A stretch of DNA of 64,000 bases from Minisyncoccia bacterium (GCA_046293175.1 JBKBPM010000002.1:158428-222427); one strand, 5' to 3'; positions 9,280-45,991 are shown, counted from the first letter of the stretch. Notes: generated by a model from the letters alone, not told the origin. A program made the numbers and translations.

Positions 9280-9356
9280 TGGTGCGCCCAGTAGGGATCG
9301 AACCTACGACCTTCTCCTTAAAAGGGAGCTGCTCTACCGGCTGAGCTATAGGCGCA
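9280..9356 (-). tRNA. tRNA-Lys (anticodon TTT), CCA encoded
   Basis: Manual fold: acceptor GCGCCTA/TGGGCGC, T-arm GGTTCGATCC, anticodon loop CTTTTAA. Confidence 0.9.
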
Positions 9357-22774: not shown

Positions 22775-22899
22775 AAATATATTCAGTTGTGGCATGCACT
22801 ATAGCATTTTTTTGATTTTATACAACCATAGCTCGTAGGGGTGCGAGGGTAGGGGAAAGACCACTTTGACGTCCATCCCCATGCTAAAATAAAATTACT

Positions 22900-39177: not shown

Positions 39178-39250
39178 GGCGGCTACCGGGAATTGAACCC
39201 GAATTGAGAGTTCCACAAACTCCAGTAATAACCATTATACCATAGCCGCC
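39178..39250 (-). tRNA. tRNA-His (anticodon GTG) with genomically encoded G-1
   Basis: Manual fold: G-1 + acceptor GCGGCTA/TAGCCGC, anticodon loop TTGTGGA, T-arm TCGGGTTCAATTCCCGG. Confidence 0.85.
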
Positions 39251-40651: not shown

Positions 40652-41044
40652 ATGAAAGCATTTTTAGAAGAATTCAAAGCCTTCGCCATGCGAGGGAACG
40701 TTGTTGATTTGGCCGTAGCGGTGATTATTGGTACCGCTTTTGGCAAGATTGTCTCATCACTCGTTGAGAACATCTTTATGCCAATCATTGGCATCTTGGT
40801 CGGTGGGGTGGACTTTACCGGCTGGACATTGACTGTTGGCGAAGCAAATATTACCTACGGCGCGTTTATTCAGAGTGTTTTTGACTTTATCATTGTGGCC
40901 CTCGTCATCTTTATGGTGGTGAAGGCGATGGCTAAAATGAAGAAGACTGCAGAAGAAGCACCAACAAAGCCAGTAGAACCATCAGCTGAGGTAAAGCTGT
41001 TGACCGAAATCCGCGACAGTCTTCGCCACCATCACCACAACTAA
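40652..41044 (+). CDS. mscL: Large-conductance mechanosensitive channel MscL (His-rich C-terminus HHHHN)
   Basis: 130 aa; [24 protein letters not shown]... canonical MscL. Confidence 0.9.
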
Positions 41045-41521
41045 AGATAAAGATTGTTGTGGCGAGATACAACCCGCAAAACAGCCAAAGCGCGTGACAG
41101 CATAGTCACGTGCTTTTGCTTTCTCTCGCCAAAGTCATAAATCAGTATTCCAATACGTACTGTCCACCAGTTATCCACATTTGGTGGGGTGTGGTGGCGA
41201 ATATAACTATATTTTTCAATCCTATTTCCGAAAAGACTGGTCTTTTTACAAGAAAGCAAAACCACTCTATGATAGAGGTACCGCACGAGTTCTCCAATCG
41301 TGCGTGTCGGAGGTATAGACACGCCACGTGCACGCCAATTTCATGACGTGAACCATGGCCAGCATGTTCTGGTGTGTCTTTATTTCCCTCATTCTTTCCC
41401 AGACCCAATCGGCACGTAGGACACTAGAGTTAGTCGCTTGAGTACTATACGCACCACCACAGATTGTGTTTGGATGAGAAACCAATTATTACCACTGTCG
41501 CCTAACTGTTCTTGTTGTGAT

Positions 41522-42835
41522 ATGGAAATTAAGCAGATAAAAAAGCGTGACGGTTCAATCAAGCCTTTTGATATTGCAAAGATTGAGCACGCCATTCTGA
41601 GGGCTCTCATGGAGACCAATGCCGGTGGAGAAGCAGATGCCAAAAAAGTTGCAACGCTCGTCCATCAAAAAGTAGTATCAATGTGTGTCCAAGCCGGCAC
41701 GGCTGAAGCTGGTGATCCAAAGGCGCAGAAATGTGTTGATGGATACCCAACCGTCGAAGAAATCCAAGACCTGGTTGAGGCGTCACTCATGGAGCTTAAC
41801 TATTTTGATACCGCCAAGGCGTACATCATTTATCGTAATGAGCGGAAGAAGATGCGTGAGCGAGATATTTTCCGCAAACGCCAGCACCTCAAGCCCTACG
41901 AGTACCCAGAACTGTACGAGTATGTTGATGCTATCCGCCACTCCTACTGGGTACACACTGAATTCAACTTTACCGGTGACGTGCAGCACTTCCACGTGAA
42001 CGTCAACGATGCTGAACGAAACGCTATCAAGAACACAATGCTTGCTATCGCGCAGATTGAAGTCGCGGTGAAAAGCTTTTGGGGGGACATATACAAGAAG
42101 ATGCCAAAGCCAGAGATTGGGGCGGTGGGGTCTACTTTTGCGGAATCTGAGATTCGTCACACTGATGCCTATTCACACCTGCTTGAAATTCTTGGTCTCA
42201 ATAATGAGTTTGCCAAGATCAAAGATATTCCTGTGATTAAGCAGCGTATGGACTACCTTGATAAGGTAGCTGAACTCTCACGTACGCAGGAGAACCGTGA
42301 GTACGCACACGCGATCATGCTCTTCTCACTTTTTATAGAACATGTGTCATTGTTCTCACAGTTCCTCATCATGATGTCATTTAACAAGCACAAGAACTTG
42401 TTTAAAGGTATCAGTAATGCGGTCGAGGCAACCAGTAAAGAAGAGAACCTTCACGGCCTCTTTGGTATTGATGTGATCAACATCATTAAAGAAGAACACC
42501 CAGAATGGTTTGATAAGGCGATGCAAGAAGCAATCTTAAAGGCATGTGAAGAAGCGTACGAAGCTGAAAGTCGCGTGGTGGACTGGATTTTCGAAGCGGG
42601 AGAACTCGACTTTTTGCCGTCACAGAACGTGAAGGAATTTATCAAGAATCGTCTCAATAACTCACTTGCGGCTATTGGTATGCCTCGCCACTTTGAAGTA
42701 AGTGAAGCTCTCCTTGAGGAAACTGATTGGTTTGATAATGAAGTCATTGCGACCAAACACGTCGACTTCTTCGATAAGCGTTCAATCAACTACAACAAAC
42801 GCGCTGCCAGTGTCACCAGTGAAGATTTATTCTAG
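41522..42835 (+). CDS. nrdB: Class I ribonucleotide reductase small (beta/R2) subunit with N-terminal ATP-cone domain
   Basis: Start at MEIKQIKKRDGSIKPFDIAKIEHAI (ATP-cone pattern K.RDG....F...KI); remainder is a ferritin-like R2 fold with the metal-ligand E..H pair (AESEIRHTDAYS); the N-terminal 28 codons of the ORF-track call are discarded. Confidence 0.75.
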   Translation: MEIKQIKKRDGSIKPFDIAKIEHAILRALMETNAGGEADAKKVATLVHQKVVSMCVQAGTAEAGDPKAQKCVDGYPTVEEIQDLVEASLMELNYFDTAKAYIIYRNERKKMRERDIFRKRQHLKPYEYPELYEYVDAIRHSYWVHTEFNFTGDVQHFHVNVNDAERNAIKNTMLAIAQIEVAVKSFWGDIYKKMPKPEIGAVGSTFAESEIRHTDAYSHLLEILGLNNEFAKIKDIPVIKQRMDYLDKVAELSRTQENREYAHAIMLFSLFIEHVSLFSQFLIMMSFNKHKNLFKGISNAVEATSKEENLHGLFGIDVINIIKEEHPEWFDKAMQEAILKACEEAYEAESRVVDWIFEAGELDFLPSQNVKEFIKNRLNNSLAAIGMPRHFEVSEALLEETDWFDNEVIATKHVDFFDKRSINYNKRAASVTSEDLF

Positions 42836-42856
42836 TAATGCTGTATTTCTGTCCAT

Positions 42857-44551
42857 ATGTCTATTAACTACCAAGAGCCGTGGTACTGGGTAAATGAAAA
42901 TACCCGAGCCTTCATGTCCCGGGGGTACCTCGTTGACGGTCAGACGACCGAAGAACGAGTTCGTTACATTGGCGAGTACGCCGAAAAAGTATTAAATAAA
43001 CCAGGCTTTGCGAAGAAGTTTGAGGATTATATGAGTCGTGGCTGGATTTCGCTCGCCACACCAGTATGGGCCAACTTTGGTCTTAAGCGTGGTCTACCAA
43101 TCAGTTGTTTTGGCTCGTTTGTGGCAGATGATATGGCGAACATTCTCCATACGCAGGCCGAAGTTGGGATGATGAGTAAGTACGGTGGGGGATGCTCTGC
43201 TTATTTTGGTGATCTTCGTCCACGTGGTAGCGAAATTACCCAGAATGGACACTCATCTGGTCCAGTCCACTTCATGCAGCTGTTTGAAAAGATTCTTGAT
43301 GTGGTGAGTCAAGGAGCAACTCGTCGTGGTGTTTTTGCTGCCTACCTGCCGGTTGAACATCCCGATATTCTTGAGTTTCTCGATATTGGCACCGAAGGGA
43401 ATCCGATTCAAAAAATCAACCATGCAGTGACGGTAACTAATAAGTGGATGGAAGAGATGGTGGCGGGCGATGCTGATAAGCGTGCAATTTGGGCGAAGGT
43501 GATACAGCGCCGCGGTGAAATCGGCTACCCGTACATTATCTTCATTGATAATGCGAACGAAGGGAAGCCAGACGTCTACAAGGACAAGAATCTCCCGATT
43601 TATGCAAGTAATGTCTGTAGTGAGATTATGCTCCCGAGTAACCGTGATTGGTCATTTGTGTGTTGTCTCTCGTCTATTAACATCATGCATTATGATGACT
43701 GGAAGGATACTGATCTCGTCGAAACGATGACCTACTTCCTTGACGCGGTGATGAGTGAGTTTATCTCGAAGCTCGAAGTCATGCGTGATCACGAGGATAA
43801 GGACAAGCGTCTAGCCTTCCGTTTTATGGAACGACCATACAACTTTGCGGTGGCGAACCGTGCGCTGGGACTTGGGGTGCTGGGGTACCACTCATACTTA
43901 CAGTCAAAAGGTCTGCCGTTTGAAAGTGAAGAAGCTAGACGTATCAACAAAGAGATTTTTGCCTTGATGCAAGAGCGGTCACTGAAGGCTTCAGCTGAAA
44001 TGGCTAAAGAGTACGGTGAACCAGAAATCCTTAAGGGTTATGGCCGCCGCCACACAACCACCATGGCGATTGCCCCGACTACCTCATCAGCCTTTATTCT
44101 TGGTCAGGTGTCACAGGGGATTGAACCAATCTGGTCCAACTGCTACATTAAGGACGTGGCGAAGCTCAAGGTGGTTATTAAGAACCCAACACTTGAAACC
44201 TTGCTTGATGAGAAAGGGAAGAACACCAAAGAAGTCTGGGACAGTATTCGTGACAACGATGGTTCGGTGCAACACCTTGATTTTCTCTCTGATGATGAAA
44301 AGGCGGTATTCCGCACCTTTGCCGAGATTGATCAGAGCAAGCTCATTATGCACGCTGGTGAACGGCAAAAGTTTATTGACCAAGGGCAATCACTCAATGT
44401 GATGGTGGCGCCTGATACGCCAGTAAAGGAAATCAACCAGCTCTACCTCCAGGCCTGGAAGCAGGGTTGCAAGGCACTCTACTACCAACACAGTATGAAC
44501 GCCGCACAGCAGTTGACTCGCAAGAAGATTCAGGAACGAGCGCAGAAGTGA
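42857..44551 (+). CDS. nrdA: Ribonucleotide reductase large (alpha) subunit, short form lacking N-terminal ATP-cone
   Basis: 564 aa; conserved catalytic core motifs (CFG...NLC..I pattern: ISCFGSFV, SNVCSEI); paired with ATP-cone NrdB upstream. Confidence 0.85.
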   Translation: MSINYQEPWYWVNENTRAFMSRGYLVDGQTTEERVRYIGEYAEKVLNKPGFAKKFEDYMSRGWISLATPVWANFGLKRGLPISCFGSFVADDMANILHTQAEVGMMSKYGGGCSAYFGDLRPRGSEITQNGHSSGPVHFMQLFEKILDVVSQGATRRGVFAAYLPVEHPDILEFLDIGTEGNPIQKINHAVTVTNKWMEEMVAGDADKRAIWAKVIQRRGEIGYPYIIFIDNANEGKPDVYKDKNLPIYASNVCSEIMLPSNRDWSFVCCLSSINIMHYDDWKDTDLVETMTYFLDAVMSEFISKLEVMRDHEDKDKRLAFRFMERPYNFAVANRALGLGVLGYHSYLQSKGLPFESEEARRINKEIFALMQERSLKASAEMAKEYGEPEILKGYGRRHTTTMAIAPTTSSAFILGQVSQGIEPIWSNCYIKDVAKLKVVIKNPTLETLLDEKGKNTKEVWDSIRDNDGSVQHLDFLSDDEKAVFRTFAEIDQSKLIMHAGERQKFIDQGQSLNVMVAPDTPVKEINQLYLQAWKQGCKALYYQHSMNAAQQLTRKKIQERAQK

Positions 44552-44659
44552 AATGAGCCAAGGAGGCTACAAGCCGACTATGGTGAATTTCCACCTGTGA
44601 GGCTTATCTTTAATGGCCTCATCGACGCACTACCACTTTGTTTATTAAATTGCCAAAGA

Positions 44660-44698
44660 AAAAGCCCGCCGATGTCCGTATCGACGGGCTTTTTTGGT
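44660..44698 (+). terminator. Intrinsic terminator AAAAAGCCCGCCGATGTCCGTATCGACGGGCTTTTTT after nrdA
   Basis: GC stem-loop with flanking A5/T6. Confidence 0.6.
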
Positions 44699-44708
44699 GG
44701 GAGAGTAA

Positions 44709-45029
44709 TCAGTGGGCAAACTGCTCGCAGAGGATGGCGAGCATGTTTTCGGCCGTAAGCGCATCCTTGTCGCGCTTTTGCCAGTCCTTTTCAAGCTGGC
44801 GAAAGGTTTTTGGTCGCTGACAGCCAAGTATCTCGCCGATAGCGAAGAGCAGATTGATCAGATGATCGTTGACCTGTTTCTTGCGTAGACTGAGTTGACC
44901 AAAACGAAGCCTCTGGTCTTCTTTTTCGAGTTTACGAAACTCGGCGACCACCTCGGGGAGGGTGATGCTGCCATCGGTCAGATGGATATTGGCAGCGTGC
45001 ATGAACGGGGAGATGGGAAGATCAGTCAT
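44709..45029 (-). CDS. Hypothetical protein
   Basis: Start taken at MTDLPISPF within ORF 44709..45080; no motif. Confidence 0.4.
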   Translation of the reverse strand: MTDLPISPFMHAANIHLTDGSITLPEVVAEFRKLEKEDQRLRFGQLSLRKKQVNDHLINLLFAIGEILGCQRPKTFRQLEKDWQKRDKDALTAENMLAILCEQFAH

Positions 45030-45595
45030 CAGTCGTCCTTTCTGCCACAACGGGCTTGGTTGATGTTTCCGCACTACCATACAACAGTCCTTTGATTTTG
45101 TATACAGTAGCCGTGGATATGTCCCTTCGGTAACTGCACACCTCGTGTATGATAGAGGGTAAGGAAGCCAAAGCGGTGTTGGGCAGGGACTATGTTTCGC
45201 GACGACATGGTCCCCGCCGAGTACCGCTTTGCTTTATATACATGGGCTGATACACTAAATGGTAGTGTAGTCTCAATTGGCGCAGGGAGGTGTCAATGTT
45301 CCCGTTTTTTCTAAACGTGTCTGGTCTCCTCTTTGGGAGCGCTGAGATAGTACTACGGCCCAACTTTCCTTCGTGTGAGCGGTGGGAAGCGCCACAGGTA
45401 CAAGTCGAGCAAGTGGCTTGCTTGTGCAAAGAAGTAGCAGGTCTAGATTTTTGTGTGGGAAATTTACTTCGCCGTACAAAATTCATCGAGGTGTATCTAA
45501 TCCCGCGAAATGGACAACATCCGCTTCTGTACTTGAAGATGAAGTTGGAAAAACAATGAACGGGGCGACCAACGGTCGCCCCTTCGCCTGCAATT

Positions 45596-45991
45596 TTGTA
45601 TAATATCATCATGGATTCATACCTTGACCAAGTAATACAAAGTCCCTCGCGTGTGCTTGCCACCTATGGTCCGGCTGGACTAAATGTGGTGCCGGTGTCT
45701 GTAGTTACCAAAGAGGGTGACACACTCACCCTCTACGATTTTTTTATGGGGAAGACTGTCGTTAATATCAAAGCTACTGGTGAGGTGGCATTAACCGCTT
45801 GGGATGGACTGTCAGGTATTCAAATCAAGGGTCAGGCTTGTTACGAATCATCAGGGGAATCGTATACTAATGCGGTGACCGTCATGCGCGGGCGGTTTCC
45901 AGAACGAACGCTTCGTGGCCTTATTCGTATTAGTCCAAAGACGGTATTTTTGGTTTCACCTGGTACTGAGGCTGGACAACAATTAGTATAG
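45596..45991 (+). CDS. PNPOx/flavin-reductase-like split-barrel protein (putative FMN-binding)
   Basis: 131 aa; pattern resembles pyridoxamine 5'-phosphate oxidase-like fold; weak. Confidence 0.45.
   Translation: MYNIIMDSYLDQVIQSPSRVLATYGPAGLNVVPVSVVTKEGDTLTLYDFFMGKTVVNIKATGEVALTAWDGLSGIQIKGQACYESSGESYTNAVTVMRGRFPERTLRGLIRISPKTVFLVSPGTEAGQQLV

Follow-up and report, generated by a model that had tools for sequence, protein, structure and literature searches.

What controls deoxyribonucleotide supply in a bacterium whose ribonucleotide reductase (RNR) bears its ATP-cone on the small, radical-generating subunit and has a large subunit without the customary cysteine tail? This question is raised by a two-gene operon, nrdB-nrdA, in DNA of a Minisyncoccia bacterium (GCA_046293175.1 JBKBPM010000002.1:158428-222427), of which one strand of 64,000 nucleotides (nt) was analyzed; this entire stretch is termed the window, and all coordinates are counted from its first letter. 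Our analysis suggests that the operon very probably represents a class Id RNR of Patescibacteria (Parcubacteria/Kaiserbacteria-like), with an allosteric switch in the cone of its beta subunit, a promoter associated with a DnaA box and a folded leader RNA. The two genes are:

41522-42835, plus strand: nrdB, class Id radical-generating subunit, ATP-cone (residues ~1-112) plus ferritin-like core, recognized by Pfam, NCBIfam and its match to 5OLK.
42857-44551, plus strand: nrdA, minimal class Id catalytic subunit of 564 amino acids (aa), with no ATP-cone and no C-terminal cysteine pair.

The nrdB product is a protein of 437 aa with the N-terminus MEIKQIKKRDG, encoded in a single uninterrupted frame from the ATG at 41522. 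Residues 5-110 match the Pfam ATP-cone profile PF03477 (E 8.1e-21, 74.8 bits, with a gathering cutoff of 25.8 bits) and residues 122-393 match Ribonuc_red_sm (E 3e-59), both in one frame, which bears out the proposal of an initial annotation of this DNA that an ATP-cone is fused to the R2/NrdB ferritin-like domain. An in-frame TTG at 41438 would lengthen the gene by 28 codons and overlap the 3' strand of the leader hairpin H5 described below; as this extension (41438-41521) is unconserved and the start MEIKxI(K/R)KRDG is conserved in relatives, the ATG at 41522 is taken as the start of nrdB. Searches against solved structures recovered the cone-bearing NrdB of Leeuwenhoekiella blandensis as a full-length match (PDB: 5OLK, E 2.7e-165), together with further class Id beta subunits (6SF4, E 2.4e-146; 8DQ3 and 6CWO, E about 1e-97 or better), and the next-nearest class, Ic, reaches only about 1e-15. 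NrdB shares 61% identity with the L. blandensis protein as a whole, the core (66%) being closer than the cone (46%).

Residues named for L. blandensis and other class I enzymes (PMC5794259, PMC8463856) were transferred through alignment of NrdB to the solved structures, and their invariance was scored over 31 divergent cluster representatives. The first metal ligand, the Glu E180, together with the second-sphere Y217 (the Tyr/Glu pairing), and the remaining metal-site residues E210, H213, E273, E307 and H311 are all invariant; E180, E210, H213, Y217 and E273 align with E170, E200, H203, Y207 and E263 of L. blandensis. The same is true of the helix-1 lysine K184 and the subclass-invariant W187 (QIEVAVK184SFW187), which correspond to K174 and W177. 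In the cone, the KRDG nucleotide-binding motif (K8, R9, D10, G11) is invariant, and the L. blandensis residues that form the deoxyadenosine triphosphate (dATP)-dependent cone-cone interface and the gamma-phosphate contact, namely D73, M80, K89, I92, I93, R95 and R102, have as their counterparts D83, M90, K99, I102, I103, R105 and R112, every one of which is likewise invariant. Closest relatives, metal ligands and the helix-1 Lys/Trp pair alike place the protein in the NrdBi/class Id group, and by its sequence it is a class Id (NrdBi) beta subunit with an N-terminal ATP-cone; the NrdBi-like affinity suspected initially is hence supported both by full-length matches to solved class Id subunits and by signature residues. 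The AlphaFold2 model of the whole protein is mediocre (predicted local distance difference test, pLDDT, 66), with values of 74-92 in the cone. No second ATP-cone was detected in the six frames of the window in a search with this cone, nor any second RNR in the window in searches with NrdA and NrdB.

The placement of an ATP-cone on the small subunit is itself an arrangement already known, having been characterized in L. blandensis since 2018, where dATP bound to the cone of NrdB inactivates the enzyme by tetramerizing beta (PMC5794259). Since the class Id hallmarks and the cone-interface residues are conserved, this published mechanism is the best supported one for the present enzyme, which would be an aerobic, manganese-type class Id (NrdAi/NrdBi) RNR. 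On grounds of homology and conserved residues, ATP on the NrdB cone would favor a beta dimer and an active alpha2beta2 complex, and dATP would cause two cones to pair, giving an inactive beta tetramer whose complexes with alpha are unproductive. Substrate specificity would be set as usual in the cone-less, 564-aa NrdA.

The nrdA gene starts 21 nt past the end of nrdB. Its product matches the RNR barrel in Pfam (E 1.6e-100), TIGR02510 ('NrdE-prime') in NCBIfam (769 bits, cutoff 602 bits) and the class Id alpha structures 6DQX (E 7e-217) and 6DQW (E 3e-182) (Actinobacillus ureae, Flavobacterium johnsoniae). Its length, which is also the median for class Id alpha subunits (564 aa; PMC9669993), the lack of a cone and the 'NrdE-prime' match are those of an NrdAi. 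A Pfam profile search found no PF03477 match in NrdA, as the initial annotation had anticipated; its further statement that the protein starts directly in the barrel does not hold, for residues 6-80 align with a short helical region found at the N-terminus of class Id alpha subunits of solved structure, and residues 32-79 give a weak, sub-threshold match to Ribonuc_red_lgN (the all-alpha N-domain). The translation and its alignment with 6DQX contain C84, N252/C254/E256, C269/C270 and Y541-Y542, that is, the active-site Cys pair, the N-x-C-x-E finger-loop thiyl Cys and the YY radical-transfer dyad. The C-terminal CxxC shuttle pair, which the literature calls universal for class I alpha subunits, is missing: the last Cys is residue 538, ahead of the YY dyad, no Cys follows Y541-Y542, the chain ends in ...YYQHSMNAAQQLTRKKIQERAQK, and there is no CxxC downstream of NrdA in the other reading frames. 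The solved class Id alpha subunits, as represented by the PDB sequences 6DQX and 6DQW, end in ...NLLSCSSCE and ...SLVSCSSCES. Among related loci, the alpha CxxC is missing in 73/73 loci of clade I with a complete alpha C-terminus, and it is present in 10 loci of clade II as well as in 6DQX and 6DQW.

The cone of the beta subunit shows a second peculiarity:

41678-41746, plus strand: insertion in the ATP-cone, NrdB residues 53-75, SMC55VQAGTAEAGDPKAQKC71VDGY, with two invariant Cys.

This insertion amounts to ~13 residues relative to L. blandensis NrdB. C55 and C71 are invariant in the 31 cluster representatives and in all 74 clade-I loci, with variable residues between them. The pair is present in no solved ATP-cone, and among the best 150 ATP-cone representatives from 1.84 billion proteins both cysteines were found only in fragments of the same family. 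When the pairing of the two traits was scored over 84 loci (including L065), 74 had the beta insertion and no alpha CxxC, 10 had the alpha CxxC and no beta Cys pair, and none was mixed. This anticorrelation amounts to about one phylogenetic split, and is in that sense suggestive rather than statistical. AlphaFold2 models the insertion with a pLDDT of 81-92 as an extension of helix 2 (helix 37-60), a turn (61-65) and a short helix (66-69); C55 and C71 are disposed symmetrically about the turn, and the helix-turn-helix layout suggests that they may lie close together. The loss of the alpha CxxC and the Cys-bearing insertion of the cone, which are the features that set this enzyme apart, were both missed by the initial annotation.

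The operon was recovered from at least 80 species genomes in a scan of genome collections, and from thousands of metagenome protein clusters. The nearest loci belong to metagenome-assembled genomes (MAGs) labelled Candidatus Parcubacteria, Kaiserbacteria, Nomurabacteria, Paceibacteria and 'Patescibacteria group', with NrdB identities of 64-98%. All 80 of the 80 related genome loci encode a full two-domain NrdB followed by a short NrdA, the top 120 protein clusters are all of 437 aa with both Pfam domains, and an identical NrdB is encoded on an independent Logan contig. The gene order yibE/F-like - mscL - gap - nrdB - nrdA - (PNPOx-like) - M10 peptidase-like is conserved, with an mscL homologue upstream of nrdB in 64 related loci, and this synteny suggests that the operon has been long vertically resident in the Patescibacteria radiation. 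The initial annotation described the architecture as known from only a few lineages. This is true of the literature, in which 93 RefSeq NrdBi proteins with a cone are reported, 70 of them from Flavobacteriales (PMC5794259), and a literature search found no paper linking Patescibacteria with ATP-cones; it is not true of sequence space, as the arrangement is very common in Patescibacteria. One locus from a MAG labelled Flavobacteriales (L013; JALVEJ010000288.1, 1702 bp) has a Patescibacteria-type leader and an NrdB with the Cys insertion (79% identity), and is probably a mis-binned contig.

Three other explanations of the enzyme's features were weighed. That the cone is a separate gene, or the fusion a product of assembly or a frameshift, is scarcely credible: the frame is continuous with no stop, the linker region and start codon are conserved, and the same 437-aa layout recurs on independent contigs from many samples and sources, so the frameshift or separate gene that the initial annotation had named as a refutation did not materialize in the 80 loci or the top 120 clusters. 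A cone that is a degenerate or repurposed relic, leaving the enzyme with no dATP off-switch like the cone-less class Id enzymes of F. johnsoniae and A. ureae, is improbable. It would fit the identity of only 46% to the sole characterized cone, which tells against a straightforward transfer of the L. blandensis mechanism, and the ~13-residue insertion, which interrupts the alpha2-alpha3 region and could alter cone-cone pairing. However, the Pfam score is three times the cutoff, KRDG, every named interface residue and the phosphate contact are invariant in the divergent representatives, AlphaFold2 is confident on the cone, and strong purifying selection is evident across the at least 80 species. 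The role of C55 and C71 is harder to assign. They may represent a shuttle moved to beta, or a redox-sensitive or metal-binding clasp. A purely structural role, in which a clasp or metal site steadies the inserted helical hairpin independently of the loss of the alpha tail and the alpha active site is re-reduced directly by a free redoxin or small thiol, has close to an even chance; the anticorrelation rests on the split between clades I and II and may be a coincidence, the C-x15-C spacing is not a redoxin motif, and AlphaFold2 predicts an ordered insertion, not a flexible tail. Yet both cysteines are invariant though the residues between them vary, the trait is restricted to the family whose alpha is without CxxC, and a redox module on beta has a precedent in the glutaredoxin (Grx)-NrdB fusion of Facklamia ignava (PMC6187632). 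Given these observations, that the C-terminal CxxC was lost from alpha and its role taken over by C55/C71 of the beta cone is offered as a tentative proposal.

The operon is preceded by a gap of 477 nt (41045-41521) whose length of about 400-500 nt is kept in most relatives. There is no credible open reading frame (ORF) in it, as the initial annotation had stated, and the mechanical ORFs that can be drawn there are unconserved. Its elements, with the gene that delimits it, are:

40652-41044, plus strand: mscL, upstream neighbor (Pfam MscL, E 1.7e-43), outside the operon and the 5' limit of the regulatory gap.
41087-41116, plus strand: intrinsic terminator of mscL, a 12-bp stem followed by a T-run (terminator scan), the same as inverted repeat I2.
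41171-41179, plus strand: perfect DnaA box TTATCCACA, preceding the inferred transcription start by about 100 nt.
41245-41273, plus strand: predicted promoter TTTACA-17 nt-TATGAT (promoter scan, 10/12 matches; predicted start ~41280).
41282-41304, plus strand: leader helix H1 (CGCACGA / UCGUGCG), whose loop contains CUCC; present in the minimum-free-energy fold.
41305-41391, plus strand: 5' domain of the leader, in which a long irregular helix P2 pairs GGAGGUAUAGACACGC (41309-) with GGUGUGUCUUUAUUUCC (-41387) and encloses the variable hairpins H3 and H4.
41386-41484, plus strand: 3' domain of the leader, the long hairpin H5, built of helices P1, P2 and P3 with a variable hairpin at the apex and an unpaired 3' junction.

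The palindromes noted in this gap by the initial annotation as possibly regulatory were thus found to comprise the mscL terminator and covarying stems of the leader, accompanied by a DnaA box and a promoter, and not NrdR boxes. Transcription would start at an extended -10 promoter that precedes the nrdB start codon by ~240 nt: the -10 of the window aligns with the conserved extended -10 (TGnTAnnAT) of relatives, and a 70-locus alignment, from which the conserved leader blocks were read, contains a block 'aaaaatg.TAt.aT' 8-11 nt ahead of H1. The box TTATCCACA is the only exact DnaA box in the 64-kb window. In related loci an exact forward box lies at -450..-100 in 47/79 cases, and one with no more than one mismatch in 61/79, against an expectation of 0.0015 per window, and its distance to the leader core is constant across loci. 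This candidate box presumably makes nrd transcription responsive to the replication initiator, in the manner of E. coli nrdAB, for which control by DnaA is established (PMC8203912).

NrdR boxes, which the initial annotation had proposed to look for, were not found in the gap: the consensus acaCwAtATaTwGtgt has no match with three or fewer mismatches in 41045-41521, and candidates picked by eye at 41421-41468 failed the consensus scan. No second ATP-cone ORF that could be nrdR is present within the 64-kb window. A clade-II relative (L076:3897-3945), which is distant, AT-rich, without a leader RNA and with a retained alpha CxxC tail, has two NrdR-like boxes, ACACCATATATAGTAT and ATACTATATATAGATT, 33 nt apart and just upstream of nrdB, and served as the positive control for the box. 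Seemingly, NrdR-type control was replaced by the leader RNA.

The leader, a 5' untranslated region (UTR) of ~240 nt, folds as a whole with a z-score of -4.1. As plain MAFFT alignments of whole leaders were too gappy, it was compared by means of anchored sub-alignments and covariance models. The H1 stem shows compensatory changes across lineages (CACACGA/UCGUGUG, CACUCG/CGAGUG, CAAGAGA/UCUCUUG), and 97% of its cells are paired in the model-fitted alignment. The 5' domain contains the most conserved block of the leader, cGUGUGUCGGaGG..GACAC, and P2 pairs this GGAGG..GACAC block with a downstream GUGU(C)UUU...CCUC/UUCC stretch. In the window, the minimum-free-energy fold with H1 and P2 has -50.3 kcal/mol, versus -33.3 for an alternative local hairpin, and RNAalifold yields the same 5'-domain architecture as its consensus. 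In the covariance model of this domain (R2), 92% of cells are paired and 17/26 pairs change on both sides, including 6/6 pairs of H4, and P2 pairing is kept in lineages with different sequences (CAAGAC/GUCUUG, GGGGG/CCCCC). The P2 duplex z-scores relative to shuffles are modest (mean -1.7), so that what supports this helix is its conserved position and its compensatory changes, not its energy. The local hairpin H2 (GUGUC-GGAGGUAA-GACAC) was rejected as the functional fold: it is 97.5% pairable, has one compensatory pair and is 17 kcal/mol worse than H1 plus P2; it may be an alternative or kinetic conformer. Within 41282-41391 and in relatives there are four mutually complementary segments, of which the CACAC-type ones are at the 5' end and after GGAGG and the GUGUG-type ones lie in between and before H5. 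These allow two exclusive schemes, 1:2 with 3:4 or 2:3, and in the lineage of the window the middle segment has a change from U to C that is accompanied by A-to-G changes in both of its partners. The exclusive schemes may indicate a switch.

In the 3' domain, scored over 40 loci, 94.1% of the H5 cells are paired and 13/18 pairs change on both sides. The compensatory cells number 109, versus 38.5 in shuffles, and 0/500 shuffles reach 109; controls in which the pairing was slid are 30-40% paired. The H5 helices are recovered independently by RNAalifold, and the unpaired 3' junction is conserved as CACCACCAC in the window and UCUUCCACC in most relatives. The H5 covariance model (R1) matches the window with 49.3 bits (E 2e-10), gives one match per locus, immediately ahead of nrdB, with much better scores for the sense than for the antisense strand.

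The leader appears to be new. Rfam 15 gives no match at gathering score for it in the window or six related loci, the only matches being tRNAs elsewhere, and at E up to 10 over 40900-41650 the matches are noise only, with cobalamin, 2'-deoxyguanosine (2'-dG), Mn and other riboswitches unmatched. A pattern scan for the leader core in metagenome and viral contigs returned 142 matches, most of them chance in GC-rich DNA; 17 further metagenome contigs have the full leader context, each followed by nrdB if it is long enough to include that region, and none of them is viral. The leader was found only upstream of nrdB. Taken together, it is very likely a real, functional, structured cis-element, which would affect translation or the fate and stability of its mRNA when bound by a protein or small ligand. 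A riboswitch that senses a metabolite is a possibility of rather low probability.

The general habit of translation initiation in this genome bears on the question. Among the 48 ORFs of at least 150 aa in the 64-kb window, an upstream 4-mer resembling a Shine-Dalgarno (SD) sequence is present in only three, and a -10-like hexamer TANNNT ends 4-12 nt before the first ATG in 29 (60%), versus 12.6% at random positions; examples are the starts at 22899, 32487, 20968 and 53230. This suggests that the genome largely uses leaderless, SD-free mRNAs, which makes the long structured leader of nrdB exceptional and GGAGG unlikely to be an SD. As an SD or the start of a leader peptide, GGAGG was also rejected because no start codon follows it and SD sequences are rare (3/48 ORFs). 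Sequestration of the nrdB AUG was rejected too: the stretch from H5 to the AUG is A/U-rich, RNAalifold shows no conserved structure between H5 and the AUG, leaving simple start-codon occlusion unsupported, and a complementarity of 'GAUUGAU' to H5 is without covariation.

It might be argued that the upstream elements act as DNA operators, be they NrdR boxes or other protein-binding palindromes, instead of as folded RNA, given that H1 and the GUGUC...GACAC inverted repeats directly follow the -10, a frequent site of repressor binding, that the DnaA box can be taken as a sign of DNA-level control at the locus, and that the distant clade-II relative has its two NrdR-like boxes. This is very unlikely. 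Besides the lack of NrdR boxes in the gap, the loops between arms vary in length (4-14 nt, in H5 20-60 nt), the stems tolerate G-U pairs, scores of the covariance models are much better for the sense strand (78 versus 32 bits in one example), and partners up to 90 nt apart covary, all of which are properties of RNA helices and not of operators. Several observations nonetheless weigh against parts of the reading of a DnaA-linked promoter and folded leader. The putative DnaA site consists of one 9-mer, some 65 nt ahead of the -35, and the transcription start at ~41280 is deduced from promoter consensus. The block GUGUGUCGGAGG..GACAC hardly varies, with only 1/7 pairs changing on both sides, which leaves its pairing unproven by covariation, and the shuffle statistics are inflated by the kinship of the loci. 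Furthermore, one set of relatives, group B (L004-L010, L068, L054, L121, L122, L130), is without H5 and has a 5' UTR of only about 130 nt, retaining the DnaA box, promoter, H1 and P2; H5 is thus a lineage-variable module and not indispensable.

The surroundings of the operon offer some additional observations. On its 3' side lies a terminator:

44659-44695, bidirectional: terminator hairpin 3' of nrdA (AAAAAGCCCGCCG...CGACGGGCTTTTTT), read from the sequence and common to the convergent ORF 44709-45080.

This 123-aa ORF (44709-45080, minus strand), which converges on nrdA, has no Pfam match and no homologue in the 80 related loci, its sole match being the identical Logan contig; it is perhaps an orphan, perhaps no gene at all. 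Farther downstream, a gene for a PNPOx-like flavin mononucleotide (FMN)-binding split barrel (45596-45991, plus strand; PF01243, E 3.8e-9) is found, and such a gene immediately follows nrdA in about 10 clade-I relatives. The presence of a flavoprotein beside a putatively superoxide-dependent RNR of class Id is reminiscent of class Ib, with its NrdI. The 64-kb window contains seven tRNA genes (at 9283, 22546, 23428, 32322, 33422, 36041 and 39178), the last of which (39178-39249, minus strand) lies between a decarboxylase-like gene and the yibE/F-like gene, upstream of mscL.

These results imply that the beta-cone architecture, of which the one enzyme studied biochemically belongs to a small set of Flavobacteriia, is the standard form of RNR in a vast radiation of uncultured bacteria with reduced genomes. 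Conservation there of an RNR that would depend on oxygen and superoxide also has a bearing on the anaerobic lifestyle that these bacteria are assumed to lead. The enzymes break the stated class I rule of an alpha C-terminal Cys pair, which turns the re-reduction of the active site into a testable question; were the beta Cys pair to have assumed this role, a single mobile domain would house the allosteric switch and also bring the reducing equivalents, or would constitute a redox-gated switch. Likewise, a covarying leader new to Rfam and tied to nrdB is a candidate riboswitch or RNA regulator in organisms in which little regulation is understood, and if it proved to be the former it would represent a new riboswitch class dedicated to the synthesis of deoxynucleoside triphosphates (dNTPs).

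Among known systems, the closest is the NrdAi/NrdBi enzyme of L. blandensis (PDB: 5OLK, 6SF4; PMC5794259), which shares the cone on NrdB, a cone-less NrdA of ~560 aa and the order nrdB-nrdA, and whose NrdB, 61% identical over its full length, has all the named metal-site and cone-interface residues in common with that of the window. It differs in coming from Bacteroidota rather than Patescibacteria, in lacking the 13-residue Cys-bearing insertion of the cone and in its upstream regulation; all species with cone-bearing NrdBs are said to encode other RNRs as well (PMC5794259). The class Id enzymes of F. johnsoniae and A. ureae are similar in their alpha subunit, which aligns over residues 6-556 (E 7e-217), and in the Tyr/Glu pairing and helix-1 lysine of beta; their beta, however, is without an ATP-cone, and their alpha ends in ...SCSSCE(S), whereas that of the window has no Cys past YY. 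The Grx-ATP-cone-NrdB of Facklamia ignava (PMC6187632) resembles the present protein as an NrdBi with an N-terminal extension in which cysteines, redox-active in F. ignava, stand beside an ATP-cone. Its cysteines, though, belong to a full glutaredoxin domain (CPWC) that reduces the C-terminal pair of its own alpha, whereas the window has no redoxin fold, only C-x15-C inside the cone, and an alpha without a recipient pair. With regard to regulation, E. coli nrdAB (PMC8203912) likewise has a consensus DnaA box upstream of an RNR promoter and an implied tie between dNTPs and the replication initiator, with three boxes at the promoter as opposed to the one predicted box ~65 nt upstream of the -35 here. 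Of the known RNR cis-devices (NrdR boxes, cobalamin and 2'-dG riboswitches), the clade-II relative L076 has NrdR-like boxes and the window has none. On comparison of their sequences, what appears to set the present enzyme apart from those characterized is the combination of an alpha without the CxxC tail and a beta cone bearing an invariant Cys pair.

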